A stretch of 26,595 nt of DNA from a virus (IMGVR_UViG_3300043812_000021:70099-96693), one strand, 5' to 3'. Shown: positions 8,413 through 23,412, counted from the stretch's first letter. Notes: a model not told the origin generated them from the letters alone. Program-made: numbers and translations.

Positions 8413-9000
8413 ATGAAATTTAATGCAATGAGACATAACACTAGCTACTATATGACTAGTATGGGTGATGTTGACGTACAAATTGTTCCAATTGAAAACT
8501 TTAGTGTAATTAAAGTGGATAAAGATACTTACTTTATTCCATTCGGACTTGAAAATTATAAAGCACTAAGAAAGATGGGTAATACTCAACTACATGAAAC
8601 GTTAGAGAAGACGATTGCTGGTGCAGGTGTTTCTAAATATGGATATGATCGTGACCTACTAATTAGTAAGATTGAAGAGGTAGACGTAGAAGACTCTACA
8701 CTTAATGTGATCTTAGGGGTCTTAGAAAATGAATTGAAATCAATCTCAGATCATGTTTTAACCAAGAAACATTTAGTACAGTTAATCAACTTTATTTTTA
8801 ATGCTGGGGATTTAACACCAGACCAACATATTATTAATTACATCCTTGATTTAACACCGAAAGTAGTTAATAATAACATTAAAGCATATGCCATTCCTGC
8901 TCTATTGGACTTAATGAAGCAACTAGATGAAAGCGGGATTTTAGATGACATTATGGATCCGAAAGCTATGCTCAAAAAATACAGTGAAAGAATGAAGTAG
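8413..9000 (+). CDS. hypothetical protein
   Basis: RBS AAGGAG; 195 aa ORF. Confidence 0.8.
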   Translation: MKFNAMRHNTSYYMTSMGDVDVQIVPIENFSVIKVDKDTYFIPFGLENYKALRKMGNTQLHETLEKTIAGAGVSKYGYDRDLLISKIEEVDVEDSTLNVILGVLENELKSISDHVLTKKHLVQLINFIFNAGDLTPDQHIINYILDLTPKVVNNNIKAYAIPALLDLMKQLDESGILDDIMDPKAMLKKYSERMK

Positions 9001-9001
9001 T

Positions 9002-9809
9002 ATGATTACGTATAAGAAGTTAAAAACGTCTCGGGCAATGGCTAACCACTTAAAAAACTATCACTTAATTAGCATGAGTATTAGTCAAGCCTAAAGATGT
9101 AGGTCAAAGAGGTTTTACTTATCTAGTTGCTCAACCCCGTTTTAGTAAAGACTTAGAACTATTACAATTCAGCACTTTTTCAAGTCAAGAAATGCTAGAA
9201 TGGAATTTGAAGAATGACCCCTCTGGTCTGTTTGAGGAAAGTGAACCTCATGAATGGACTTTTCTAAATAAGGTACCCCGTTATTATGAGTATCGAGAAT
9301 TTAAAGTTGATAATCATGACTATACGATTGTTAAGCTTTACTATGACCAATACGTGTTTAACCTATTAATGGGGGAAAGGGAGTATCTAATTACCCCACT
9401 AATTAAGCCTAGTTGGGATGATAAAGATATTAGTCTTTATAATTTGTCTGAGTTAATTAATTTAGGTTTATTAGGACGAGTAACTAAATTAATGTTTAAC
9501 AGTACGCCGATATTTTTTAGCGAGATTAAAGACTTAGACTCTAGCGTAGTAAGAACTACCTATTTTAATGCTTATGGTATTGATATTAGAAATAATTACC
9601 ATATGTTATTAGATACTAAACCTTTAACATCGGTTAATTGCGACTCTAGTGCTTGGAAAAAATTAGACGGAACTAATTCCGAGGAGTCCTTAAATAAATT
9701 TATCAAAGGCGAAAGCGCACTAGAAACAGAAATTACACTTCGAGGTACAGAAGGAAACTTATTGATAATGGTGGTTAGTATGTTAACTGCTACCAATAAA
9801 CTAGACTAA
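9002..9809 (+). pseudogene. hypothetical protein with apparent +1 frameshift near 9075-9094 (or sequence error)
   Basis: ATG 9002 directly after upstream stop gives MITYKKLKTSR...ISM, ending TAA 9092-9094; the 9192..9809 frame is open back to 9078 and ATG 9192 has no RBS. Confidence 0.6.
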
Positions 9810-9891
9810 TATTATATTAATTTTCGAGTACCAGAGGGAATCCAGTAAAATGGGTTCCTTTTATATTATATTAATTTTCGAGTACCAGAGG
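9809..9891 (+). repeat. perfect 29-bp direct-repeat pair ATATTATATTAATTTTCGAGTACCAGAGG
   Basis: Copies at 9809-9837 and 9863-9891, with a terminator-like hairpin GGGAATCCA/TGGGTTCCT between them. Confidence 0.85.
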
Positions 9892-10082
9892 TTTTTTAAG
9901 AAAAAAGACAGATTAAAAAATGTGTTGTTTTACCTTGACTTCTATTGATTAGTGTGGTATTTATAAGCGTGTTAAATTTGTCCTATTTGCTATTATATGA
10001 AGAAAATAATCTAAAAAATTGTGTATCTGTTGAGTGAGTAGGGGTTATAGTTACCAAACCAGATAAAAATTAAAATTAGGGC

Positions 10083-10247
10083 TTGCATTTTATTAAAAGT
10101 ATGTTATTATAATAATGTAATAAGGAACAAGGATTATTTCAAGAGTTGAGCTTAAACTCTTAATTATTTAGAAAAAGGGTTGACAATAATAACTAACAAT
10201 GTTATTATTATAATGTAATAAGGAATTAAGAAAAGGAAGTTATAAAA
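10083..10247 (+). promoter_or_regulatory. tandem promoter cassette with stem-loop (copy 1)
   Basis: TTGCAT..TGnTATTAT; hairpin AAGAGTT-GAGCTTA-AACTCTT 10141-10161; TTGACA-17-TATTAT at 10180; RBS AAGGAAGT. Confidence 0.85.
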
Positions 10248-10644
10248 ATGACTAATGAAGAAATCATGAATGTTATTAATCAAATGGAATTAAAGAGTGC
10301 GCAAGTTGAAGCCTTAAGCGCTATTGACCTTGAAGATCGTGTTAATGATACAGTTAACGATTTATACAAGGGGGACTTTGATGGCTTTCATGGAAGAAGA
10401 TGAAACTGGACTTCGTGAGTGCTGGACTGAACTCGATGATTGGTATAATAACCATGACAATGATGAAACGCCTATTGCTTTATGGTTGTTTAACTGGATG
10501 GATGCAAGCGAGAAAGTATATTTTTTAGAAGATGTTAATTCTACAATCTTACATGACTACCTTGGTGTTGATGGTGTCAATCTATATTATCGTAATAATA
10601 TACTAGACTTAAGAGACAATTATATTACTAATATTTTAAGCTAA
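10248..10644 (+). pseudogene. acidic hypothetical early protein with apparent +1 frameshift (or sequence error)
   Basis: Cassette RBS+ATG 10248 (MTNEEIMNVINQ...DLYKGDFDGF) stops at 10401-10403; removing one base at ~10370-10389 joins it to MEEDETGLREC... of the 10324..10644 frame. Confidence 0.7.
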
Positions 10645-10661
10645 TTTTTTATAAAAAAGTA

Positions 10662-10788
10662 TTGACAATAATAACAGAACAATGTTATTATAATAATGTA
10701 ATAAGGAACAAGGATTTATTTCAAGAGTTAAGCTTAAACTCTTAAGTTATTCAGACTGTAATTTTAATAAGAAAAGGAAGTTATAAAA
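10662..10788 (+). promoter_or_regulatory. promoter + stem-loop + RBS cassette (copy 2)
   Basis: TTGACA-17-TATTAT; hairpin 10723-10743. Confidence 0.85.
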
Positions 10789-11229
10789 ATGACTGCATTT
10801 AATCAAAAAACTATTTCAACGTTAATTTTAGACAACCTAAACAAGTGCGAAGCGTTAGGTGATATTGAGGAAGAATTGACTTATGCCCACTGGTTTATTG
10901 ATAACGTTGATAAGGCTATCGAAGCCCTTAATGAATTTGAAAACTCGGATCAATTAAGGATTAAAACTTCTTTCAATGGTATTTTTGGCTCTATTCAATA
11001 CGCCCAAAACTACCTTAAAGAATTAGAGAACTCTAATTATGATTGTGACTCTTTAGATGAAGTAGACTTTGGGAATCCTTTAGAAGTTGCTTCTTATATA
11101 GCGCAAGCCAATTTTAGCTATATCTTTAATTTAATTAAAGATAATCTTAATATTGATGAGTGGGACTTACTAACACAAAAAGAGAAAACTAAAATCAAAA
11201 ATTATTTAAATGAATTAATCAGTCAATAA
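10789..11229 (+). CDS. acidic early protein, paralog of 17945..18373 (candidate Ocr-like DNA mimic)
   Basis: Cassette RBS; colinear similarity to 17945..18373. Confidence 0.8.
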   Translation: MTAFNQKTISTLILDNLNKCEALGDIEEELTYAHWFIDNVDKAIEALNEFENSDQLRIKTSFNGIFGSIQYAQNYLKELENSNYDCDSLDEVDFGNPLEVASYIAQANFSYIFNLIKDNLNIDEWDLLTQKEKTKIKNYLNELISQ

Positions 11230-11244
11230 TTTTAGCTTAATCTA

Positions 11245-11370
11245 TTGACAATAATAACCAACAATGTTATTATAATAATGTAATAAGGAACAAGGATTTA
11301 TTTCAAGAGTTAAGCTTAAACTCTTAATTATTCAAACTGTAAATTTAATAAGAAAAGGAAGTATATTAAA
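11245..11370 (+). promoter_or_regulatory. promoter + stem-loop + RBS cassette (copy 3)
   Basis: TTGACA-17-TATTAT; hairpin 11305-11325. Confidence 0.85.
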
Positions 11371-11592
11371 ATGGTTAATACTTTAGAAGTAGCAAACAAC
11401 AAAAAGAATATGAATACTGTTAAGTTTATGCAATACATAGAACCTCACATAGGATTTAGTAAAAACGGTGATAAGATTAATGTTGTAACTGATTATTATA
11501 GCAAGAGGGAACTTAAAAGCCTCTTTAATAGCTATCTTAAAAGGGACATTAATAAGTTAACAAACACTATAAAAGAACGTATTTTTAACTAA
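11371..11592 (+). CDS. hypothetical early protein
   Basis: Cassette RBS AAGGAAGT; stop abuts next promoter. Confidence 0.8.
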   Translation: MVNTLEVANNKKNMNTVKFMQYIEPHIGFSKNGDKINVVTDYYSKRELKSLFNSYLKRDINKLTNTIKERIFN

Positions 11593-11675
11593 TTTTTTAA
11601 CATTATCTATTGACAATAAGAACCAACAATGTTATTATTACAATGTAAGATAAATAAGAAAAGGAAGTTATAAAA

Positions 11676-12077
11676 ATGATTATTGAAACATATATGAACA
11701 ATTTGGAACTCAAAAAAGAATTATACAAGGACAATGAAAAAGTCTTAAAACAACTTGAATATTTAGAAAAAGCCTTTGACCTTGTTTCTGAAAGTAAATT
11801 TGATAAGGCTTTGGATGTTCTTACAAGTGGAAAAGCGGGGTCAAAAATTGCGATTGATGTTTTAAGTCAATACATCCAAAAATTTGAACTCAATAATTAT
11901 AATAAAATACAGTACAATGTACTCGGTATCCATGAAGTTAACGTTAACAATTTAGTCAATGAAAAATGGTGGAAAGTAGTAGAATTAGACAATACTAAAA
12001 AAGTTATTACTATTGCTAAGACTAGCAAAGAATTACAATATGATTTACTAAATTATCTATCAATATATTTTAAATAA
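11676..12077 (+). CDS. hypothetical early protein
   Basis: Own promoter at 11610 and RBS; first 10 aa identical to 13672..13983. Confidence 0.8.
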   Translation: MIIETYMNNLELKKELYKDNEKVLKQLEYLEKAFDLVSESKFDKALDVLTSGKAGSKIAIDVLSQYIQKFELNNYNKIQYNVLGIHEVNVNNLVNEKWWKVVELDNTKKVITIAKTSKELQYDLLNYLSIYFK

Positions 12078-12147
12078 TCTATTGACAATATAACAGAACA
12101 ATGTTATTATTACAATGTAAGATAAATAAGAAAAGGAAGTAATTAAA

Positions 12148-12441
12148 ATGGATAATGTGGAATTAACTAATAAAATTATGGAACTTGTAGATTTTGTTAT
12201 TGAAGGCGATGATATTACAATCGACCTTGATCTGTTAAATGTATATTATCAAGGCAATTGGCTTTTTGATTATGATAGTACGGATAAAAACGATGTACTA
12301 ATCTATACAACAAACGATAGCGGTTCCCGCAAGTTGTTAATTGACCGTAATAATCCTACTAATAAGGATTTGAAAAAAGTTAGTCAAGTGATTACAGATA
12401 GCCTTAACATGGTTGAAGCATTAATTGAAGGTAAACAGTAA
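12148..12441 (+). CDS. acidic hypothetical early protein
   Basis: Own promoter at 12082 and RBS. Confidence 0.8.
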   Translation: MDNVELTNKIMELVDFVIEGDDITIDLDLLNVYYQGNWLFDYDSTDKNDVLIYTTNDSGSRKLLIDRNNPTNKDLKKVSQVITDSLNMVEALIEGKQ

Positions 12442-12453
12442 GGGGGTATAATT

Positions 12454-12651
12454 ATGAATGAAAGGGACAACCGCCGTAATTATGTACATGATAAACAGAT
12501 TCCAGAATCTTATAAAAAGGCTAAAAAACTAATTGTTATTAGTTTACTGGTGCTTGTTACCCCTATTATTGTGTTATCTATGCTGGATCCCGCTAACTGG
12601 TGGATAATTATTTTCATAACAATTATGACCCCGCTTTGGTCAAGAAGATAA
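12454..12651 (+). CDS. small membrane protein
   Basis: RBS AAGGGGG; two hydrophobic segments. Confidence 0.7.
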   Translation: MNERDNRRNYVHDKQIPESYKKAKKLIVISLLVLVTPIIVLSMLDPANWWIIIFITIMTPLWSRR

Positions 12652-12668
12652 AAAGGGGTGATTAGATT

Positions 12669-13061
12669 GTGTTAACCTTAAAAGATTTTTTTAAAATCAA
12701 ACCCCAGTCTAAACAGTCTAAATCTATGTATAGCTTCTACCGTTCATATATGATTAATATGGACGACTATTCCAAACCAGATTCAGAGACTAGCTTAATT
12801 ACATTTAAAGCTTTAGATTATGAATTAAAGCAAGTAATTAAAATCGATACTATTAAAATCTATGCCCCTAACTTTTCCAGTTGTCTATTAGCTTGGCAAC
12901 CCCGTTATAAAAGAATGTTAACTATCTTCGATAATTATATATTTATTGATAATGTATTTATTGACTTGTTAACCAACCAACGGGAATATGGACATTCTTA
13001 TAATATGTATAATTCTTTGAAATTCTTAAAAGACAAGGATTTCAAAATTCCTAAAAAATAA
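12669..13061 (+). CDS. hypothetical early protein
   Basis: RBS AGGGGTG, GTG start. Confidence 0.7.
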   Translation: MLTLKDFFKIKPQSKQSKSMYSFYRSYMINMDDYSKPDSETSLITFKALDYELKQVIKIDTIKIYAPNFSSCLLAWQPRYKRMLTIFDNYIFIDNVFIDLLTNQREYGHSYNMYNSLKFLKDKDFKIPKK

Positions 13062-13074
13062 TTTGTAATAAGTA

Positions 13075-13241
13075 TTGACAATATAACAGAACAATGTTAT
13101 TATAATAATGTAATAAGGAACAAGGATTTATTTCAAGAGTTAAGCTGAAACTCTTAATTATTTAGAAAAAGGGTTGACAATAAGAAGTAACAATGTTATT
13201 ATAATAATGTAATAAGGAATTAAGAAAAGGAAGTAATAAAA
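13075..13241 (+). promoter_or_regulatory. tandem promoter cassette with stem-loop (copy 4)
   Basis: TTGACA at 13075 and 13174; hairpin 13135-13155 with loop variant AAGCTGA. Confidence 0.85.
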
Positions 13242-13595
13242 ATGAAAATCTACAAACTACCAGAGTATGGTGATTCCCGTTTTTACAAGCATTTTGTTTA
13301 TTCAAAGGCTAATGAATACGAAAATGCTAGTCTTTACTCCGTTACATATGAACACGTTTTGACTGATTGGGAAGGCAACGTCGAAGGGTCAAGTACTAAC
13401 CTTAATGAATTAGCTAATAAGCTAGAGTTAGGCTATTATCCAGAAGATACTTTGCAAGAAGAATATTTGCTTGTTAATGGTGAGAATGCTATTAAGGACT
13501 TGCTCAAAGATTACCCTTTGCCTATTCAACAAGAATTAGAGAATTATAAACAAACGCCTACGGGTATTTATTTCAAACCCTATTCAATTTTTTAA
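13242..13595 (+). CDS. hypothetical early protein
   Basis: Cassette RBS; 117 aa. Confidence 0.8.
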   Translation: MKIYKLPEYGDSRFYKHFVYSKANEYENASLYSVTYEHVLTDWEGNVEGSSTNLNELANKLELGYYPEDTLQEEYLLVNGENAIKDLLKDYPLPIQQELENYKQTPTGIYFKPYSIF

Positions 13596-13671
13596 CATTA
13601 TCTATTGACAATAAGAAGTAACAATGTTATTATTATAATGTAATAAGAAATAAGAAAAGGAAGTTATAAAA

Positions 13672-13983
13672 ATGATTATTGAAACATATATGAACAACCT
13701 TAATCAAGAGTGTGGAATTGCTGAAGATCTTGATTTTGATAATTTTGATAGTAATACCCGTTTGTTTGTTAATAATCAAAATCAAATCTATTTTGGAATG
13801 ATTGTTAACTATTTTGGTGATATTCAAGTAGTTAATCTAATGACTGGTGATTTTGGATTTTTTGACTCAGAAAACAACCAACTAGAAAAGGAGGGTCAAA
13901 TGAAAGTCACTTATTTTATGAAAGATTTAAACCGCTATTTATTGCAAGAGTTTGACTATGATAATATTATCGAACATATTTAA
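13672..13983 (+). CDS. acidic hypothetical early protein
   Basis: Own promoter at 13605 and RBS. Confidence 0.8.
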   Translation: MIIETYMNNLNQECGIAEDLDFDNFDSNTRLFVNNQNQIYFGMIVNYFGDIQVVNLMTGDFGFFDSENNQLEKEGQMKVTYFMKDLNRYLLQEFDYDNIIEHI

Positions 13984-14000
13984 TTTTTTAACATTATCTA

Positions 14001-14166
14001 TTGACAATATAACAAAACAATGTTATTATAATAATGTAATAAGGAACAAGGATTATTTCAAGAGTTAAGCTTAAACTCTTAATTATTTAGAAAAAGGGTT
14101 GACAATAATAACTAACAATGTTATTATAATAATGTAATAAGGAATTAAGAAAAGGAAGTTATAAAA
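14001..14166 (+). promoter_or_regulatory. tandem promoter cassette with stem-loop (copy 5)
   Basis: TTGACA at 14001 and 14099; hairpin 14060-14080. Confidence 0.85.
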
Positions 14167-14481
14167 ATGACTAATGTATACACTATGAAAGATTGGAATA
14201 ATGAAGCAACTGGTGAATTAAATCCAAAGTTATTTCAAGAAGTTGATCATGAAATCTATTCTGAAATGTATGAAGTTTTACCACCATTACCACTAGAAAA
14301 AGCAACGAAAAAAATTTTAGAAAATCAGTTAGGTATTAAGTTCATTCAAACATTTTGCATGGGTGAAGCTTATACAACGGATGATGACGACCCAGAAAGA
14401 TATTTATACCAATCATTTGGTAAAGCTGAAAATGGTAAATGTTATTATTTAGGCTTGCGCCGTTCAGAATATGATTATTAA
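14167..14481 (+). CDS. hypothetical early protein (weak resemblance to DUF1419)
   Basis: Cassette RBS; EVDHEIYSEMYEVLPPL...FCMGEAYT...GKCYYLG pattern; family call is from recall only. Confidence 0.75.
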   Translation: MTNVYTMKDWNNEATGELNPKLFQEVDHEIYSEMYEVLPPLPLEKATKKILENQLGIKFIQTFCMGEAYTTDDDDPERYLYQSFGKAENGKCYYLGLRRSEYDY

Positions 14482-14500
14482 TAAAAGGTAGGTAAATAAA

Positions 14501-14794
14501 ATGAATAATGTAATTAGATTTGAACTTGTAAAAGTTGACCCTCAAACTGAATTATCAATCGAACGGGGGGAGTATCGTATACGAAATGAATTTGGTGAAG
14601 TTGTTCCTGCTTGTAAATTAAGCATAGTTGTTAAAGATATGGCTAAGGCAAAAATTATCTTACAAGAACATGATACCATTATCAATGGCAAAGGATTTTA
14701 TGTTAGCGGTGAAAACAAACTAACTTTGGATTGCTTTAATAATAAACAAGTAGATAATTTACTTACTTATTATCAAGAAGTGTTTGGTTTATAA
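14501..14794 (+). CDS. hypothetical early protein
   Basis: RBS AGGTAGGT. Confidence 0.75.
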   Translation: MNNVIRFELVKVDPQTELSIERGEYRIRNEFGEVVPACKLSIVVKDMAKAKIILQEHDTIINGKGFYVSGENKLTLDCFNNKQVDNLLTYYQEVFGL

Positions 14795-14813
14795 AAAGGG
14801 GTGTGATTAAACT

Positions 14814-14996
14814 ATGGAGCCTATTATAATGCAGGGTCAAGATATGATCGATTTTCAAAACTCACAAGGCGATGATTGCTATTTTGACAAAGATTATCAA
14901 GTAGTTACTATCAATCCTAGATATAAGTATTTAGTAGGATTGGACGAAATCGAAAAGAATTCAATTATATACAAAGTAATTAAAGAAGGTGATTAA
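14814..14996 (+). CDS. small hypothetical early protein
   Basis: RBS AGGGGTG; followed by terminator. Confidence 0.7.
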   Translation: MEPIIMQGQDMIDFQNSQGDDCYFDKDYQVVTINPRYKYLVGLDEIEKNSIIYKVIKEGD

Positions 14997-15015
14997 TTTT
15001 ACCTTCTTTTTTTTT
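14983..15015 (+). terminator. intrinsic terminator
   Basis: AAGAAGGTGA/TTACCTTCTT stem + long T run. Confidence 0.8.
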
Positions 15016-15024
15016 GTCAAAGGG

Positions 15025-15203
15025 TATTAAGTTATTAAGTTATTCAGTTATTAAACTATACTCAGTTATTAAGTTATTCAGTTATTAAGTTATTCAGTTA
15101 TTGGGTTATTAAACTATTAAACTATTAAACTATTAAACTATTAAACTATTAAACTATTAAACTATTCAGTTATTAAGTTATTAAGTTATTAAACTATACT
15201 CAG
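15025..15203. repeat. tandem repeat, 22 units of ~8 bp (TATTAAGT/TATTCAGT/TATTAAAC/TATACTCAG)
   Basis: Read directly; includes seven consecutive TATTAAAC units at 15107-15162. Confidence 0.95.
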
Positions 15204-15416
15204 CCCTACCCTATTTAGCTATAAAAGTCAAATAATAGATTAAAAAAATGTTGCAAATACAACATAATTTCAGAAAGCCTAACTATATAAATTTATCTAG
15301 TAAAATCCTTGACTTCTTGCGATTATTATGGTATAGAATAATCTTAAAATTGTATCTTTACATAGTTAACAAAACATGATATAATATAATTAAAAGATAA
15401 GGAAGGAAGTATCACA

Positions 15417-15737
15417 ATGAAAAAAGGAATGCAACCAAAAAATTATATTGTTAGTACTATTGGCAATAAAGACAAAGTAAAAGTGAATTACTTTAAAGAT
15501 AGTAATAATTATTACATGGATCAAGACTATCGCAATTTAACAGTGGGTGATATTGCACTAGTAAAGGATAATGCACTCCACTACCTTGATAGTGTATATT
15601 ATAAGGAATTACACCGCCTTGACTCAATTCTGTTAAGTTATGATAAGGCGGAATATAAGGATTTAAGCAATAAACTAGCTAACGTTATCTTTGAATTAAA
15701 GCAAAAGCTAGTTGAAGAGTATAGACTCTTCCAGTAA
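15417..15737 (+). CDS. hypothetical early protein
   Basis: Promoter TTTACA-17-TATAAT (from 15357), RBS AAGGAAGGAAGT. Confidence 0.8.
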   Translation: MKKGMQPKNYIVSTIGNKDKVKVNYFKDSNNYYMDQDYRNLTVGDIALVKDNALHYLDSVYYKELHRLDSILLSYDKAEYKDLSNKLANVIFELKQKLVEEYRLFQ

Positions 15738-16060
15738 AAAGGTAAATAAATTAAACAATTCACAATCAAGGGTAAAAACTAAGAATGTTATTATATCAAC
15801 GTTCGTTAAGTCTCTACCCTTTTAGTTTTACATATAAAAGATAAAGACAATAAGGGTAATTAGTGATTATCTTCACTAATTAAAAACAACAAAAAAGCCC
15901 TATAAAAGCTAATAAAAGGCAAAAACAAGCCAAAAACGTATAAATAAATTAATAAAAATATTTTAACAGTTGATAAATTTTAGAGTTAAAAAAGCCCCGT
16001 AAAGACTGGTATAATAGCATTCTTAACAAGTGGATCGATCCAATTAATTCTATAAATGTG

Positions 16061-16089
16061 TTGACAATATGATTACATAATGATATAAT
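16061..16089 (+). promoter_or_regulatory. consensus sigma-A promoter without a convincing downstream gene
   Basis: TTGACA-17-TATAAT with extended TG. Confidence 0.75.
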
Positions 16090-16347
16090 ATAATTGAAAG
16101 ATAAGGAAAGGGAAGTGATTAATAGAAAACTAAACTTAATTAAACAACTGAATAAAATAGACTGTAACATTAAGAACAGAATATAGCTGGAGTTTATTAG
16201 GGCTATACGGTGGATGTATATGATTAGGGAAGAAGATACTTAATTTTTAAAAAGGTACGGATTACTCTAAACATATCTAGCTAACAACAACCAAAAATGG
16301 TTTCCCTTACCAGCTATCTGGGCGTTTGCTATTTACCTTTCAATATT

Positions 16348-16376
16348 ATAATAACATTAATAGGCTTCATTGTCAA
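16348..16376 (-). promoter_or_regulatory. minus-strand copy of the cassette-type promoter
   Basis: Reverse complement reads TTGACA-ATGAAGCCTATTAATGT-TATTAT (17-bp spacer). Confidence 0.7.
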
Positions 16377-16592
16377 TACTTATTTATAAAAAATCAACTT
16401 GATTATCTTATAGCCCTATTTCTTTATATAACCGTGTTTAATTCATTTTTAGGCTTTAATGGTAGATTATACCTAAACAGTGCTAAAACGCCTCAGAATA
16501 GCTTACATGGAAAATTAGTGCTATTCTAGTTATTGTTTATCTAGTAGGTGCTATAATTGCTAAAATCAATCAATAAAAATTAAAATTAGGGC

Positions 16593-16750
16593 TTGCATTA
16601 TGTTAAAAGTATGCTATTATAAAAGTGTAATAAGAAACAAGGATTTATTTCAAGAGTTAAGCTTAAACTCTTAATTATTTAGAAAACCTATTGACAAACT
16701 TAACTAACAATGTTATTATTATAATGTAATAAAGAAAGGAAGTTATAAAA
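16593..16750 (+). promoter_or_regulatory. tandem promoter cassette with stem-loop (copy 6)
   Basis: TTGCAT at 16593 (upstream ATAAAAATTAAAATTAGGGC shared with copy 1), hairpin 16652-16672, TTGACA at 16691. Confidence 0.85.
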
Positions 16751-17005
16751 ATGACTAATGATATTAAAAATGTTCTGAATGATTTAGCTAACAAGGTAAG
16801 GGAAGCAACTAATGCTAGTATCAGTTTACAGACTGTACATGATAATGCTAACATTTTTCCACAAAATCTAATTGTTAACGATAGTTGGCAATTGCTTACA
16901 CCAAAGGAGCAGGAACAGTTACAAGCCAATGGAATCACTAATAATTTAGTTATCAAACTAATTAATAGAATTAATAGAATTGAAGAATTTAACAAACTAA
17001 AATAA
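16751..17005 (+). CDS. hypothetical early protein
   Basis: Cassette RBS. Confidence 0.8.
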   Translation: MTNDIKNVLNDLANKVREATNASISLQTVHDNANIFPQNLIVNDSWQLLTPKEQEQLQANGITNNLVIKLINRINRIEEFNKLK

Positions 17006-17092
17006 TCAGACCAGATAAAAATTTAAATAAACTATTGACAATAACAACAATCAATGTTATTATAATAATGTAACAAGGAAGGAAGTAATAAA

Positions 17093-17368
17093 ATGAATTG
17101 GAATGATTTGATTATTGAGAAAAGTTGCGGAATTGTCACGGAGAAAAATATTGATAATTTTAATGTGGCTTTTTGGTACGCAATTAATAACGAACATGAT
17201 TCAGATACCCCCAAAGGAGAACTTTGTAAATTTACCATTGATATGTGGGGAATGAAACTTATGGGACACTATGTCGCAGATTGGATTGGCGATGATGAAT
17301 ACCCTAATGAAACAGAGCCTTGTGAAATTGAACTTGACCATTTAGCAATTATAAAACTTAAGAAGTAA
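17093..17368 (+). CDS. acidic hypothetical early protein
   Basis: Own promoter at 17035 and RBS. Confidence 0.8.
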   Translation: MNWNDLIIEKSCGIVTEKNIDNFNVAFWYAINNEHDSDTPKGELCKFTIDMWGMKLMGHYVADWIGDDEYPNETEPCEIELDHLAIIKLKK

Positions 17369-17460
17369 ATGAAATAAAATTTAAATAAACTATTGACAAT
17401 AATAACTAGCAATGTTATTATAATAATGTAATAAGGAATTAAGAAAAGGAAGTAATCAAA

Positions 17461-17769
17461 ATGGAAAAGTTAACAGACAATGTAAAAACTGAATTAGTTA
17501 GTCTTATTGAAACAACTTATGGTGAAGCAATCCTTACCTTGAAACGAGGTGAAGAAGAAAAAGAAATTGTCATTGCTAACACTGGTTTATCTGAAGTAGT
17601 GTATGAATCCGCTATTGATTATTATATGTATGACTTAAATTGGACTCAAGAACAATTTGATCATTATTGGGAAAACGGGGGCGAAGATAAGGAAATCGAT
17701 AATTACATTGAGGGGACTGTTGATTATTACGATGATGAGTCTACGTGGGAAGAATTACAACAAAATTAA
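17461..17769 (+). CDS. highly acidic early protein (candidate DNA mimic)
   Basis: Own promoter at 17393; hand count ~27 D/E vs 6 K/R in 102 aa. Confidence 0.8.
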   Translation: MEKLTDNVKTELVSLIETTYGEAILTLKRGEEEKEIVIANTGLSEVVYESAIDYYMYDLNWTQEQFDHYWENGGEDKEIDNYIEGTVDYYDDESTWEELQQN

Positions 17770-17778
17770 ATAAACCTA

Positions 17779-17944
17779 TTGACAATTATAACATTCAATG
17801 TTATTATTATAATGTAATAAAGAACAAGGATTATTTCAAGAATTAAGCTTAAATTCTTAATTATTTAGAAAAAACTATTGACAATAATAACTAACAATGT
17901 TATTATTATAATGTAAGATAAATAAGGAAAAGGAAGTAATCAAA
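17779..17944 (+). promoter_or_regulatory. tandem promoter cassette with stem-loop (copy 7, compensatory variant)
   Basis: TTGACA at 17779 and 17878; hairpin AAGAATT-AAGCTTA-AATTCTT 17838-17858. Confidence 0.85.
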
Positions 17945-18373
17945 ATGGGTGAAGAATTTAATTACAACACTATGTTATCAACTATTGCGGATGAATTGGA
18001 AAACGGAAGCAATTCACTTGAAGATATTCAAATGAATACTACTAGCAACGATTTATGGATTATTGGAACATATAAGGCTTCACAAGCATTAGAAGAGTTT
18101 AGTGAAGAAGATCAGCTTTATGCAAGCACTACTTTAAACGGTGTCTTTGGTGCTATTGAATACGTCAAGAATTATGAAACTGAACAATTTGGATTAGTTA
18201 ATACGGATTTAACCGACCCCGAAAAGGTTGCTAATATGGTTGCATATATTAACATAGAATGCGTGTTAAATGATTTAAGTGATGAGTTTGATATTGATAT
18301 TGAAGAAGACTTAACCGACCAGCAAGCAGATAGCATTGTGAACTACATTAATAACCAATTAGGATTTGAATAA
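17945..18373 (+). CDS. highly acidic early protein (candidate Ocr-like DNA mimic)
   Basis: Hand count ~31 D/E vs 3 K, 0 R in 142 aa; paralog of 10789..11229. Confidence 0.8.
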   Translation: MGEEFNYNTMLSTIADELENGSNSLEDIQMNTTSNDLWIIGTYKASQALEEFSEEDQLYASTTLNGVFGAIEYVKNYETEQFGLVNTDLTDPEKVANMVAYINIECVLNDLSDEFDIDIEEDLTDQQADSIVNYINNQLGFE

Positions 18374-18377
18374 TATT

Positions 18378-18407
18378 AAAGGGCTTTTCATAAGTCCTTT
18401 TTATTTT
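18378..18407 (+). terminator. intrinsic terminator
   Basis: AAAGGGCTT/AAGTCCTTT stem + T tract. Confidence 0.75.
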
Positions 18408-18728
18408 GCTTCTTTTATTATCCTTATCTATACAGGGGATGTTTTGTTGCAAATGCAACATTATTATTATTATTATTATTCTAGTTCATCCCCTTTGTCC
18501 TTGCTTATTTAACTCAATCTATTATTATTTTAGTCTGTTGGCTTGTCTGTGCTTGTTTTATTGCTTTAATGGTAAATTATACCTAACTACCCTAAAACGC
18601 CTCAGAAAGCCTTATATAAAGAATTAAGGCTATATAATAATTAAGCTATTATTTTATGATTATGTATTGACAATATAAAATGCTTATTGTATTATAATGG
18701 TGTAAGATAAAGAAAAGGAAGTATTATC

Positions 18729-18941
18729 ATGACTTTATTAATTAGTGTATATAACTTATTCTACCTACTTGCGAGCGGTTTAATTAGCTTGCTGGAGCTA
18801 ACTTGCAAGGTTACTTCTAAACTACTTGGAATCGACTACTCAACGGCTTGCACTGGTGTATGCACTATACTAGTAAGCTTTGCGGGTGCTGGTTTATTGT
18901 TGATTGTCTTATTCCTAAAATTAAAATTTAACCTAATCTAA
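18729..18941 (+). CDS. small membrane protein
   Basis: Promoter TTGACA at 18667, RBS AAGGAAGT; hydrophobic; terminator follows. Confidence 0.75.
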   Translation: MTLLISVYNLFYLLASGLISLLELTCKVTSKLLGIDYSTACTGVCTILVSFAGAGLLLIVLFLKLKFNLI

Positions 18942-18948
18942 CTATTAA

Positions 18949-18986
18949 CTCCTTTGGTACTTTTTACCGAAGGGGCTTTTTTATTT
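18949..18986 (+). terminator. intrinsic terminator
   Basis: CTCCTTTGGTA/TACCGAAGGGG stem + T tract. Confidence 0.8.
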
Positions 18987-19227
18987 CGCTTTATAGGTTT
19001 GCTAGTCTTTAATACTAGATAATACGGTTATGACCACACCCCCATCTTGTTCGAAGGTCTACCTCCTCAAGGGTGGTCACTCGCTCTGCCTAGGGTCATT
19101 AAAAAATATTTCCTAAATCCTAGCATTTTCCATAGATTCATGAACAGCTATCTTTACCCCTATCTCTATCTTTTTCTTAGCACACCCCCGTCTTTTTACC
19201 TAACTGGAATTTAGAAAAGAAAGCAAA

Positions 19228-19266
19228 ATAAAAAAGACCAAAATCTAATAATAAAATTTTTGGTCC
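19228..19266 (-). terminator. intrinsic terminator of minus-strand operon
   Basis: Minus strand GGACCAAAA...TTTTGGTCT followed by T run. Confidence 0.65.
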
Positions 19267-19287
19267 CTAATATGTTATTCACTATAG

Positions 19288-19482
19288 TTATGCTTGTTCC
19301 AAATAATCAACGTCAACATCAATTTCTTTATATCGATACTGATCCAAGCCTATTTTCTTAATTGTGGCAACCATCTTTCGTGTTCCATTAACGTGCTTAA
19401 TATCTAAGATATTATATAAGTCACCGACTAATCTAACCGGCTGTTTATTCTTCATAGCCAAACGTGCTTGTGTTGTTAACAT
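19288..19482 (-). CDS. small hypothetical protein (prophage-like)
   Basis: TAATG coupling, RBS GGTGGGAG. Confidence 0.75.
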   Translation of the reverse strand: MLTTQARLAMKNKQPVRLVGDLYNILDIKHVNGTRKMVATIKKIGLDQYRYKEIDVDVDYLEQA

Positions 19483-19742
19483 TATTCTCCCACCTTAAAA
19501 CATTTATTTTCTTGTTTGTTATAGACATCTAAGTAAAGTTCTTTCTTATCGCCATTGTAAGTTGCTTCATAATAATGCTGATCATCTTTAATATCAGTAG
19601 CTAATAAGGCTTTGTAGTTCTGTAAAACCTTAACCTGCCATACTACAAAAATTTCGATAGATGTTTGCTCATAGCCTAAAACATCAAAGGTGTAATGAGC
19701 TACCTTATCTTTTGCTAATTTAATAAATTCTCTATTATTCAT
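19482..19742 (-). CDS. DUF6275-like phage protein
   Basis: FVVWQVKVLQNYKALL...YYEATYNGDKKELYLDVY motif; start MNNREF at 19742 with RBS GAGGAGG and TAATG coupling. Confidence 0.8.
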   Translation of the reverse strand: MNNREFIKLAKDKVAHYTFDVLGYEQTSIEIFVVWQVKVLQNYKALLATDIKDDQHYYEATYNGDKKELYLDVYNKQENKCFKVGE

Positions 19743-20017
19743 TATTCTTCCTCCTCTTTCAAAGAACGTCCACACACGGGGCAATAGTTTATGTCAATAG
19801 TAAGTGCAACAGTACCTTCACCCCACGAGGTTAAAGTCCTATTAACAGGATCGAATCCAATATCACCCCAAACGTCCTCATCTGCTGAAACAATACTATC
19901 GTCTACACGTTCAAGCATTAGTTCGGTACCATTCCAAGGTGAACCATTATACAGGCTTTTTATTTTGCTCCCTACATGACAATAAGGACAATTCTCCTGC
20001 TTTTCGGTTAATTCCAT
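19742..20017 (-). CDS. split zinc-ribbon protein (CPYC...CPVCGR), prophage-like
   Basis: Start MELTEKQENCPYCH at 20017 with RBS GAGG; C-terminal INYCPVCGRSL. Confidence 0.8.
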   Translation of the reverse strand: MELTEKQENCPYCHVGSKIKSLYNGSPWNGTELMLERVDDSIVSADEDVWGDIGFDPVNRTLTSWGEGTVALTIDINYCPVCGRSLKEEEE

Positions 20018-20204: not shown

Positions 20205-21194
20205 TTAATATCTTTCCTTTCGCTTTCCTAGAGCAAACATCGCTGTTAAACTAGCAAGTGCCAATCCACCTAATCCAACTTTACTATTAGCATTCCCAGT
20301 TTGCGGTAGTTCCTTAGCTTGGCTAGACTGATTAGTAGTCGGGTCTGATGAATTACTTTGGCTAGGCTGGTTATTAGTTGGCTGTGACTGATTATCTTTA
20401 ATAAACAGTCCATTACCATACTGTTGGTTGTTTTGCTGTGGCTGTGGATGTGGCTGTGATTGTGACTGTAAGCGTTGCTTATATTCTTGACGAGTCATGT
20501 ATTGCATATTACCACTATCCTTAATTACTGCATTATCTGGCAAAACTCCAGACCGGTCTTGATACTGATAATTTTTAGTTTGAGCATTATAATAATGATC
20601 TAAGCCATCGCTATTAACATTATGTACACTACCATCTTGATCTTGCCAAGTAGCTTCATTTGTTAAGCCTAGTTGTTGACTATTCGCAGGCTTACTGCTT
20701 TCTTGCTCACCATTATTCTGTTGATTTACAGTGTAGTTAACCCCATCTTGAGTAGTTGAGATACCACTATCCTTAGTAAAGTTACTTAAAACAGTATTGG
20801 TATCACTTTCTGATGGTTGTTGCAAAGTTACTGATTGCTTATTATTAGTATTATCCTGCGTTTTCTGGCTCTGTTGCTTCTCATACTGGCTGACATCGTA
20901 GTTGTGCAACTCATCTCCCAGACGTGTCTGTGATCGTAGCCATTCCTGATACATGGCCCCAGCCTTCGCATCAGCGGTTATGTAGGCGTTACTGAAACGA
21001 TCACCATGACCCTGTTCCCAAGCTTGTTGGCGCTCTTGCAATCCCTGCTGATACTGGTTCCAGTAGTATTGGATCTGCTGATTACCTTGGGCTTCAATCT
21101 GGTCTCGGGTTTCATCAGCCTTAGCATTTTCAGAAAGACTACCTAATGCTAAACCACTGCAAATTAATGATGTTACTAAAAGTGTTTTCTTCAT
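20205..21194 (-). CDS. LPXTG sortase-anchored surface protein, Gln/Asn/Ser-rich
   Basis: Start MKKTLLVTSLICSGLALGSLSENAKA (signal peptide; RBS AAGGAAGT); C-terminal LPQTG + hydrophobic helix + KRKERY. Confidence 0.88.
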   Translation of the reverse strand: MKKTLLVTSLICSGLALGSLSENAKADETRDQIEAQGNQQIQYYWNQYQQGLQERQQAWEQGHGDRFSNAYITADAKAGAMYQEWLRSQTRLGDELHNYDVSQYEKQQSQKTQDNTNNKQSVTLQQPSESDTNTVLSNFTKDSGISTTQDGVNYTVNQQNNGEQESSKPANSQQLGLTNEATWQDQDGSVHNVNSDGLDHYYNAQTKNYQYQDRSGVLPDNAVIKDSGNMQYMTRQEYKQRLQSQSQPHPQPQQNNQQYGNGLFIKDNQSQPTNNQPSQSNSSDPTTNQSSQAKELPQTGNANSKVGLGGLALASLTAMFALGKRKERY

Positions 21195-21282
21195 TATAAT
21201 AACTTCCTTTCCTGTTTCCTTATTACAATTATATTTTAACCTTTTAATTAAAACAATCAAGAGTAAATTACTATTTTTTGGT

Positions 21283-22013: not shown

Positions 22014-22200
22014 CGGATTGTATAGTACCGTGAACTACTTGGACATCAATGTCCGAGCTTCTGGGAACGCTAAGTAGTATTTAGGATCTTACATGTGTAT
22101 TCACAATACCTAACTTACAGAACTAAACTATTTTACCACGGCTAGTCCCTAGCCTTTAGCTTTTCTAATCCTTTATTTAAGATATTAACTGCCGCATTAA
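22014..22200 (-). ncRNA. putative TnpB omega/reRNA scaffold plus flank-derived guide
   Basis: Established TnpB biology places the reRNA over the tnpB 3' end and right end; hairpins GGCTAG/CTAGCC and GGACAT/ATGTCC visible; limits approximate. Confidence 0.55.
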
Positions 22201-23412
22201 TATCTCTATCATGATGGGTGCCACACTTAGGACAGGTCCATTCCCTAATATTGAGTGGTTTAGGCCCACTGTGGAAACCACAATTTGAGCATATCTGTGA
22301 AGTATAGTTTGGCTTAACAGCTATTAATTGTTTGCCATACCATTCACATTTATATTCCAACATTTCTCTAAATAAGTACCAACTATTATTAGCAATGCTC
22401 TTAGCTAAAGAGTGATTTTTAAGAAGATTTTTGGCTTTCAAATCCTCTATTACAATCACATCATAATTCTTAACTAACTCAGTAGTAATCTTTTGTAAGT
22501 AGTCATTACGCTTATTGGCAATCTTAGCTTGGTAACGTGCTTTAATTACTCTAGCTATTTGCCAATTCTGGTAATCTTCCAATTCTTCTTTAATATCCTT
22601 ATGGTTATGATTAAACTGTCTTACCTTAACTGTAGCTCTATGCTTTCTTTTGCTAAATTTAGATTGCCAAGCTTTAGCTTGTTTATCTAAATAAGAAATT
22701 CTAAATTTAGAATATTTCTTACCATCACTAGTAATTGCTAAGTCAGCTACTCCTAGATCTATTCCCACTACTGCTCCTGTAGGTTCTAATTTACTAATAC
22801 TAGGATCATCAACTATTAGGGATAGATAGTATCTACCAGTTGGCTCTAAGGTAACTGTATATCTCTTAATCTTACAGTCTTTTAACCTACTAGTCTTACT
22901 AGTTCTAACGCTACCTAATTTGGGTAGTCGAACTCTCCTCTTAGCAATTACTTTACAAGTAGATCTACCAGTATAAGACTGTTTAGCAGAGTGTCTTGAC
23001 TTAAATTTAGGATAACCCCCCTTGATGCTTAAACAACATCTTAAAAGCTTGTGCTAGATTGTGATTCACCACAAGGAAACTAGTTGCATCACTTACTTTG
23101 AGATAAGGATATTCTTGCTTCAACTGTTTAAGTAAGTAATTCATTCCATATTCATTGACAAAAGGACTGCTAGGATTATTTTGGTAACGTTGCTTAGCCA
23201 TATCCAGCATCAGATTCCATACTTTACGGTCATTACCAAACATTTGTAGCAACTGATTTTGTTGGGATTTGTTTGGATACAAACGTAGCTTAATTCCTTT
23301 AATAGTCATTTTTGTTTCACCTCCTTCCATGTATAATTATATTGTAACATATTAAATTAAAAGAAAAGGCAATTCATCACGTCCTTAAAAGAACGTGTTT
23401 CCTTGCCCGATC
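22030..23412 (-). mobile_element. IS200/IS605-family solo-TnpB element (IS1341-like), no tnpA
   Basis: Left-end hairpin CACGTTCTT/AAGGACGTG inside GGCAA/TTGCC (23368-23407); right end GAAG-CTCGGACAT/ATGTCCAAG-TAGTTCAC ending at 22030; left boundary uncertain by ~3 nt. Confidence 0.85.
22142..23309 (-). pseudogene. tnpB: RNA-guided endonuclease TnpB, frameshifted at a G6 tract (23016-23021)
   Basis: KLRLYPN HTH, GYPKFK, LPKLG, GIDLG, IEDL, CSNCG/CPKCG, DRDINAA; removing one G gives an uninterrupted 388-aa frame; RBS GGAGGTG. Confidence 0.92.

Follow-up and report, generated by a model that had tools for sequence, protein, structure and literature searches.

Why should a run of small phage genes be introduced, one after another, by nearly the same stretch of non-coding DNA? 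The question is raised by an array at positions 10083-18728 of a stretch of viral DNA of 26,595 nucleotides (IMGVR_UViG_3300043812_000021:70099-96693, hereafter the window), which forms the final 26.6 kb of a linear, ~74% complete IMG/VR virus record of 96.7 kb. Here 20 promoters, as read from their consensus, precede 19 open reading frames (ORFs) of 51-146 amino acids within 8.6 kb. We suggest, with a probability of roughly 80%, that this is an early, host-takeover-type gene array of a Herelleviridae myovirus, and that its repeated promoter-leader units recombine homologously, shuffling the genes behind them as cassettes.

A preliminary description of the locus had reported about 20 copies of a unit composed of TTGACA, a spacer of about 17 bp and TATTAT with an extended TG, and this count held. 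By sequence reading, a consensus scan and a script, 20 promoters were tallied on the plus strand and one on the minus strand (16376-16348). The 20 comprised 16 strict sites, a unit with an 18-bp spacer (10662), a TTTACA unit (15357) and two “head” units (TTGCAT-16-TATTAT, at 10083 and 16593), which open the two sub-arrays. The form TTGACA-17-TGnTATTAT was shared by 15 plus-strand promoters. The unit at 18667 lacked the TG, and the divergent units at 15357 and 16061 read TTTACA or TTGACA-17-TGATATAAT. The pattern TTGACAA-N11-AATGTTATTAT was matched 16 times in the window, compared with 0.04 matches expected from shuffled sequences. A strict scan for TTGACA-17-TAwwwT over the whole record recovered 16 plus-strand sites and one minus-strand site in the array, and a single site in the remaining 70 kb. 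The preliminary description was also accurate on the spacing of the genes and on their terminators: the stop codon of the previous gene lay 4-29 nt ahead of the next -35, and between genes the terminator-like hairpins that contain G+C were only those at 14982-15009, 18378-18400 and 18949-18975. A weaker one was also seen at 18445.

To a large extent the units are alike beyond what recognition by sigma-A needs, as had been claimed. In an alignment of 83 units from seven genomes, anchored on the -10, the block CAATGTTATTATwATAATGTAA (-17 to +12) was near-invariant, with 1.5-2 bits per position, and so was the -35. A leader with its ribosome-binding site (RBS), AAGAAAAGGAAGTwATnAAAATG, recurred among the units, and AAAGGAAGTwATnAAAATG, which holds the Shine-Dalgarno sequence and the start of the downstream ORFan, was present in 15 units of the array. 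The short leader was predicted to be unstructured (0 kcal/mol). The 5′ half of the spacer was variable, about a dozen “barcode” variants recurring in the 83 units, and the A+T-rich upstream block came in three or four types. Within this genome the longest exact matches between units were of 68, 64, 60 and 57 nt, and many were of 40-50 nt. The likeness often extended into the first codons: several genes start with ATGACTAATG, and the first 27 coding bases are common to g7 and g12.

Relatives were collected by an exact-pattern scan of IMG/VR, which returned seven related contigs, and by a scan of metagenome collections, which added OBLI01000024.1. Their plus-strand genes were called and the proteins clustered. 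When the 9-kb array was compared by megablast with 50,697 phage records, no near-identical phage isolate turned up. The eight genomes displayed seven arrangements of the array. Contigs G002 and G005, from different samples, were 99.98% identical across an 18-kb stretch that takes in the full array. Cassettes g5a, g6 and g18 were confined to this genome, and g30, g32, g33, g36, g38, a g17 paralogue and three further families were found only in the relatives. The order g19-g30 became g30-g19 in G006. Gene g14 was missing from its operon in G001, G006 and OBLI01000024.1, while in G003 g32 occupied the place of g14 in the operon and g14 stood behind a promoter unit of its own. Depending on the genome, the same gene was preceded by a promoter (P), by a promoter and hairpin (P-h) or by a promoter, hairpin and second promoter (P-h-P). 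The closest relative of this genome also shifted from gene to gene, being G002 for g8 (97.6%, compared with 85.9% for G003), G003 or G004 for g7 and g9, and G001 or G006 for g13. Tracts of ~100% identity began and ended near gene starts.

Breakpoints were located in chained BLAST alignments of this genome with seven distinct relatives, G005 being identical to G002. The 72 breakpoint ends formed 32 clusters. Units, 26% of the two sub-arrays, held 27 of these clusters. Coding sequence makes up 66%, yet no cluster lay more than 12 nt inside it, and the other five were at other gene edges. The preliminary description had proposed a recombination-driven cassette platform, with breakpoints of gene gain and loss in the repeat, and the relatives supported both parts: whole cassettes had been gained, lost, replaced and reordered, and single chimeric units were found where a cassette was absent.

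Where a cassette was missing, the two alignment blocks overlapped by 38-77 nt in the shorter genome. Three-way alignments showed chimeric units. In G002, the unit before g19 carried the upstream block and spacer barcode of the g18 unit of the present genome, followed by the g19 leader past the invariant core. In G003 and G001, the g18 indel was instead resolved in the upstream/-35 block. The single unit before g13 in the same two genomes joined the distal spacer barcode to a proximal-type leader, with the crossover in the invariant core. Positional orthologues had the same spacer barcode in 5 of 14 pairs, compared with 17% for unrelated pairs, and “ATC” barcodes were found in 7 of 14 units in G002 and in 2 of 67 elsewhere. 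This barcode pattern is consistent with gene conversion between the units of one lineage.

Elsewhere on the contig are genes for tail sheath, baseplate and tail-lysin proteins, together with a DnaB-type helicase and nucleases of the SbcC and SbcD types. The tail sheath had 60% amino-acid identity to that of Lactobacillus phage LfeInf (Herelleviridae, Hopescreekvirus), the nearest isolate. It matched 764 records, nearly all from phages of Firmicutes hosts typical of Herelleviridae (Staphylococcus, Bacillus, Enterococcus, Listeria, Lactobacillus and Brochothrix). Because of these matches across the family and the gene set of a large myovirus, we assign the phage to the uncultured Herelleviridae myoviruses on its protein sequences. 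Its host is probably Limosilactobacillus, since a truncated TnpB/OrfB_IS605 ORF (22142-22768, minus strand, 208 amino acids), in which only the C-terminal half of the family was matched, was closest (70-75% amino-acid identity) to copies in Limosilactobacillus difficilis, L. fastidiosus, L. reuteri and L. galli. No phage sigma factor was identified in the window by Pfam, no tRNA genes were found, and Rfam gave no match over window positions 9000-20000 at E<=1.

LfeInf (NC_029058.1, 7900-12072) has a smaller array of 6-7 units past its exonuclease block, in a syntenic position. It runs into the annotated 817-bp terminal repeat of that phage, and its units are unannotated in the record. The LfeInf units (GTGTTGACTTT...TATGGTATTAT...GTAATAAGGAA) share a related -10 and the start-of-transcript string TGTTATTATATAGTTGTAATAAGGAACAAGGAA. 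Since this non-coding string has been kept between phages whose sheaths are only 60% identical, its retention argues that the leader is under selection and not merely young. The preliminary description had likened the locus to the early region of SPO1-type phages, which is in keeping with an array of host-takeover type in a phage of the SPO1 family.

We therefore put the proposed shuffling of an early array together as follows. A standard unit, placed before each small gene or short operon, runs from the stop codon of one gene through an A+T-rich block, TTGACA, a 17-bp spacer, TGnTATTAT, AATAATGTAATAAGGAA and a purine-rich leader predicted to be unstructured, to the strong Shine-Dalgarno sequence and ATG of the next. 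The RNA polymerase of the host, with sigma-A, would fire all units right after infection. The likeness of the units would be kept by selection, core and leader being conserved even in LfeInf, and is kept also by recurrent homologous recombination and gene conversion among them. Exact matches of 40-68 nt suffice for phage recombination systems. Because the units share matches of this length, ordinary recombination between them deletes, duplicates, swaps and reorders whole cassettes, which can take place in one genome or among co-infecting relatives. Every product would stay expressible, and no dedicated recombinase would be called for. An integrase-free platform had been predicted from the start, and Pfam and PHROG scans of the array ORFs and their neighbours detected no integrase, and no serine recombinase or transposase either. 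The truncated TnpB, encoded on the opposite strand at a distance of 3.4 kb, was the sole transposase-like ORF.

Several points weigh against this reading. Promoter use and timing are read from the sequence, and a possible placement in a terminal redundancy is hinted at by synteny with LfeInf. Some events occurred away from the promoter: g14 was lost between two RBS regions with short homology only, the g32 replacement went via a shared RBS block, and the 3′ junction of the relocated g14 lay inside half a hairpin. The enrichment of breakpoints in the repeat is partly forced. Nearly all intergenic DNA is repeat and gene-breaking events are selected out; therefore the enrichment overstates any mechanistic preference. 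BLAST also extends homology into any conserved unit. Finally, all relatives are metagenome assemblies, in which the four exact repeats of 57-68 nt could permit occasional mis-joins.

The strongest competitor, possible although well below the shuffling reading in probability and compatible with it, is that the core (-17 to +12) and leader are conserved mainly for the binding of a protein, for example a phage repressor that turns off early transcription or a host factor, the units being operators first and shuffling a by-product. SPO1-type phages do shut off their early genes via phage proteins. The core was invariant in the 83 units while the adjoining half of the spacer drifted, and a related -10/+1 region has been retained in LfeInf. 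The core contains two AATGTwATwA copies at a distance of 14 nt, and many copies of it also have an inverted repeat ATAATAAC-N7-GTTATTAT. We rejected this inverted repeat as a selected feature, however, as it is missing from many copies, for example those with the spacers ATCTAAACCAACA and ACCTTAAAAATCA, and Pfam and PHROG identified no DNA-binding protein in the array. Moreover, conservation of the first transcribed bases could equally be explained by promoter escape or by a 5′ stabiliser of the kind attributed to SP82. In this relative of SPO1, early mRNA in Bacillus subtilis is stabilised by a polypurine tract near the 5′ end that resembles a Shine-Dalgarno sequence (Hue et al. 1995, as cited in PMC7509114). 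By analogy, such stabilisation is a plausible reason for the conservation of the leader.

The units came in three builds, P-leader-ATG, P-hairpin-leader-ATG and P-hairpin-P-leader-ATG, a distinction absent from the preliminary description. In the second (g5a and g6), the promoter was followed by AAGGAACAAGGATTTATTTC, a hairpin with the stem AAGAGTT/AACTCTT, the leader and the RBS. The third was found five times in this genome (at 10083, 13075, 14001, 16593 and 17779), its first promoter having no gene of its own. The hairpin, present in 7 of the 21 units, had a 7-bp A+U-rich stem of -5.4 kcal/mol (z-score +0.5 against shuffles) and an interrupted U tract. It was not called by the terminator scan, and we rejected it as an efficient terminator on its weak energy and interrupted U tract. 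Among 27 copies of the stem we found compensatory forms, AAGAATT/AATTCTT in this genome and AAGGATT/AATCCTT, with two pairs changed, in G007, and one G-U change; the pairing therefore seems to have been maintained. The hairpin lay within the 5′ untranslated region (UTR) of g5a and g6 in this genome; in relatives, the same was true of g7, g8 and g12.

Titration of the host RNA polymerase had been raised in the preliminary description, and these gene-less promoters bring up the prospect that the array is mainly a promoter sink, in which about 20 near-consensus promoters, doubled in number if the array is terminally redundant, would soak up sigma-A holoenzyme and the gene-less units would yield an abundant decoy RNA of ~55 nt. 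The extended -10 and the A+T-rich upstream block would suit such a sink, as would the five units whose first promoter lacks a gene and the three compensatory changes and one G-U change in the stem. We nevertheless consider it doubtful. It too is drawn from sequence features, and with a hairpin this weak, no better than shuffled sequences and with its U tract broken, efficient termination is unlikely. The position of the hairpin in 5′ UTRs suits a leader element, the occurrence of P, P-h and P-h-P before the same gene suits unequal crossing-over, and no Rfam family was matched. A broader version, in which the gene-less promoter-hairpin units are cassettes for the ~55-nt RNA (with Shine-Dalgarno-like tracts and a covarying hairpin) and the core is an operator, would make the array a decoy for RNA polymerase and ribosomes, a timed shut-off device and a gene-shuffling platform at once; we regard this version as improbable.

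It is very unlikely that the gene orders are assembly artefacts, produced by mis-joining at repeats of reads from co-occurring strains. Several relatives do come from the same samples, contigs G001, G006 and OBLI01000024.1 end inside the array or at its edge, and four exact repeats within the array (57-68 nt) exceed a k-mer of 55. Most exact repeats, however, are shorter than 50 nt, the cassettes found in a single genome are genuine novel sequence and not rearranged pieces, and an independent ENA assembly gave another coherent order. The agreement of G002 with G005, from two samples, together with the unique cassettes, argues against chimeras, though a few may be present. Least probable of all is an integron-like system with a dedicated recombinase acting on the hairpin or core: the layout of promoter-led single genes with a recurring hairpin-forming element is superficially integron-like, but no integrase, serine recombinase or transposase lies in or beside the array, the junctions vary within the unit (upstream block, core, RBS, hairpin loop), every cassette has its own promoter, unlike those of an integron, and two-thirds of the units have no hairpin.

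Among known systems, the closest in layout are the promoter-early stem-loop (PeSL) cassettes of the T4-type phages RB49/phi1, T4/PST and KVP40/nt-1 (Arbiol et al. 2010, PMC2839356; Comeau et al. 2014, PMC4122927). A PeSL unit of ~100 bp comprises an upstream stop, an A+T-rich block, host-type -35 and -10 elements, a Shine-Dalgarno sequence and a start codon, and stands before ORFans in a hyperplastic region. Each unit has a stable stem-loop that serves as a terminator or attenuator; these stem-loops are rich in G/C, and termination by them has been demonstrated. Homologous recombination without a dedicated enzyme was the mechanism proposed (PMC2839356, PMC4122927). The present units share this order of elements ahead of ORFans, with promoter activity predicted, and the mechanism agrees as well. 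As in PeSL regions, indels and replacements between close relatives were flanked by units, with one chimeric unit where a cassette was missing. They differ in belonging to a Herelleviridae phage of a Gram-positive host and not to a T4-type myovirus, in being far more uniform, and in all lying in one 8.6-kb array. Where they have a stem-loop, it is A+U-rich and weak and follows the promoter within the transcript, and no termination is predicted for it.

The host-takeover modules of Herelleviridae are a second point of comparison, including SPO1 genes 37-60 behind the early promoters PE1-PE12 and the “tre” genes in the long terminal repeats of Kayvirus (PMC6445280, PMC7414437). The array belongs to the same family and resembles them in gene content and genome position: very short genes are packed closely in one direction, singly or a few at a time behind strong promoters of the host sigma-A type, with few terminators, and their products are mostly small, acidic and without homologues. 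The unit gave weak DNA matches between tre genes of staphylococcal phages. The syntenic LfeInf array abuts the terminal repeat of that phage, and a terminally redundant position is only a possibility for the present array. Unlike in those modules, the payload showed no similarity to families of known function or to known host-takeover proteins. Integrons, finally, likewise line up single small genes, and close relatives differ in which genes they carry and in what order. They differ from the present array, in which there is no attC/attI and no single common promoter, and the junctions are variable.

Gain, loss and reordering of genes at such units are already known in other phage families, and the array extends the PeSL principle without opening a new category. 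In the literature searched, we found no description of such unit standardisation, or of shuffling mediated by the units, for Herelleviridae or for LfeInf. The eight variants of one array illustrate clearly how a lytic phage can turn over its early ORFans through recombination at standardised expression signals. The unit itself is a compact and probably very strong promoter, leader and RBS for Limosilactobacillus, and the variable payload supplies ~30 small proteins that could be screened for a part in host takeover or in countering defence systems.

An anti-host role of the payload is suggested by analogy with the host-takeover genes of SPO1 and Kayvirus, the hints being size, acidity and position. 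The products of 12 of the 19 genes had an isoelectric point (pI) of 4.0-4.6, and g9 and g20 were hydrophobic. No payload gene had a significant Pfam match or matched a PHROG of known function; g17 had a GA-like Pfam match just below the cut-off, and g5b matched a PHROG of unknown function. Gene g5 was present twice (g5a and g5b) and belongs to a wide family of ~140-amino-acid phage proteins. For g5b, 233 close homologues were found (178 representatives at 50% clustering), with no Pfam match in 42 members of the family and no sequence match in the PDB. Its AlphaFold model (pLDDT 96) was all-helical, with six helices. Foldseek gave no match to this model in the PDB, and its BFVD matches were uncharacterised phage proteins only. 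An Ocr-like or ArdA-like DNA mimic was considered for g5b and found no support beyond acidity. One additional nucleotide near 10385, compared with G002, G003 and G004, divides gene g4 into ORFs of 51 and 87 amino acids (131 amino acids elsewhere). The split may mean that g4 is a pseudogene or consists of two pieces, or it may stem from an assembly error. Coordinates are given in Table 1.

Table 1. Units, genes and terminator-like hairpins of the array (window positions; aa, amino acids).
Feature	Position	Strand	Remarks
Head unit of g4	10083..10247	+	TTGCAT-16-TATTAT, hairpin ~10141-10161, second promoter 10180-10208, leader/RBS
g4	10248..10644	+	131 aa in relatives; split here
Promoter, hairpin, leader and RBS of g5a	10662..10788	+	18-bp spacer
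g5a	10789..11229	+	146 aa, acidic, g5b paralogue; cassette in this genome alone
Promoter, hairpin, leader and RBS of g6	11245..11370	+	
g6	11371..11592	+	73 aa, basic; cassette in this genome alone
Promoter-leader unit and g7	11610..12077	+	Unit 11610-11675; g7 133 aa
Promoter-leader unit and operon g8, g9, g10	12082..13061	+	Unit 12082-12147; g8 97 aa, g9 65 aa (hydrophobic stretch), g10 130 aa
Promoter-hairpin-promoter unit and g11	13075..13595	+	Unit 13075-13241; g11 117 aa
Promoter-leader unit and g12	13605..13983	+	g12 103 aa
Promoter-hairpin-promoter unit and operon g13, g14, g15	14001..14996	+	Unit 14001-14166; g13 104 aa, g14 97 aa, g15 60 aa
Intrinsic-terminator-like hairpin	14982..15009	+	Closes left sub-array
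Divergent unit and g16	15357..15737	+	TTTACA-17-TATAAT, leader AAGATAAGGAAGGAAG; g16 106 aa
Convergent promoter pair	16061..16376	both	Consensus plus-strand promoter 16061-16089; sole minus-strand unit 16376-16348
Second head unit and g17	16593..17005	+	TTGCAT-16-TATTAT, hairpin, promoter 16691-16719; g17 84 aa
Promoter-leader unit and g18	17035..17368	+	g18 91 aa; cassette in this genome alone
Promoter-leader unit and g19	17393..17769	+	g19 102 aa
Promoter-hairpin-promoter unit and g5b	17779..18373	+	Hairpin with compensatory G-C to A-U change; g5b 142 aa, pI 4.05
Terminator-like hairpin	18378..18400	+	Past g5b
Last unit, g20 and terminator	18667..18975	+	TTGACA-17-TATTAT without TG; g20 70 aa, hydrophobic; terminator 18949-18975

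Between the two sub-arrays, directly past the terminator of the left one, lay about 22 eight-base units in tandem (TATTAAAC, TATTAAGT, TATTCAGT; 15020-15205). In relatives this tandem array varied in length or was partly deleted (15022-15195 in this genome, compared with 46 nt in G001 and G006), and it could be an iteron-like or protein-binding site. The convergent promoters have been kept in the relatives, the perfect-consensus promoter at 16061 facing the minus-strand unit, which was present in all seven. The ~260 nt between them held no conserved ORF (short ORFs of 23 codons here and 7 in G003) and had no Rfam match; the arrangement may represent a sense/antisense RNA pair.

Three further repeats were observed near the units, and one ORF with an anchor motif beyond them. 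An element of ~80 nt (GCTTTAATGGTAnATTATACCTAA...CTAAAACGCCTCAGAA...) occurred twice, at 16446-16524, just before the second head unit, and at 18556-18633, just before the g20 unit. A second promoter-like motif (CCTTGACTTCT...TGGTAT), which may belong to a different promoter class, was found at 9933-9960, ~150 nt before the left head unit, and at 15307-15334, just before the g16 promoter. An ORF of 351 amino acids (20205-21260), in the block of minus-strand genes running towards the array, had at its C-terminus an LPXTG motif for cell-wall anchoring (Pfam PF00746, E=6e-7). Directly upstream of the array, two exact 29-nt copies (ATATTATATTAATTTTCGAGTACCAGAGG), 54 nt apart (9809-9891), flanked a terminator-like hairpin.

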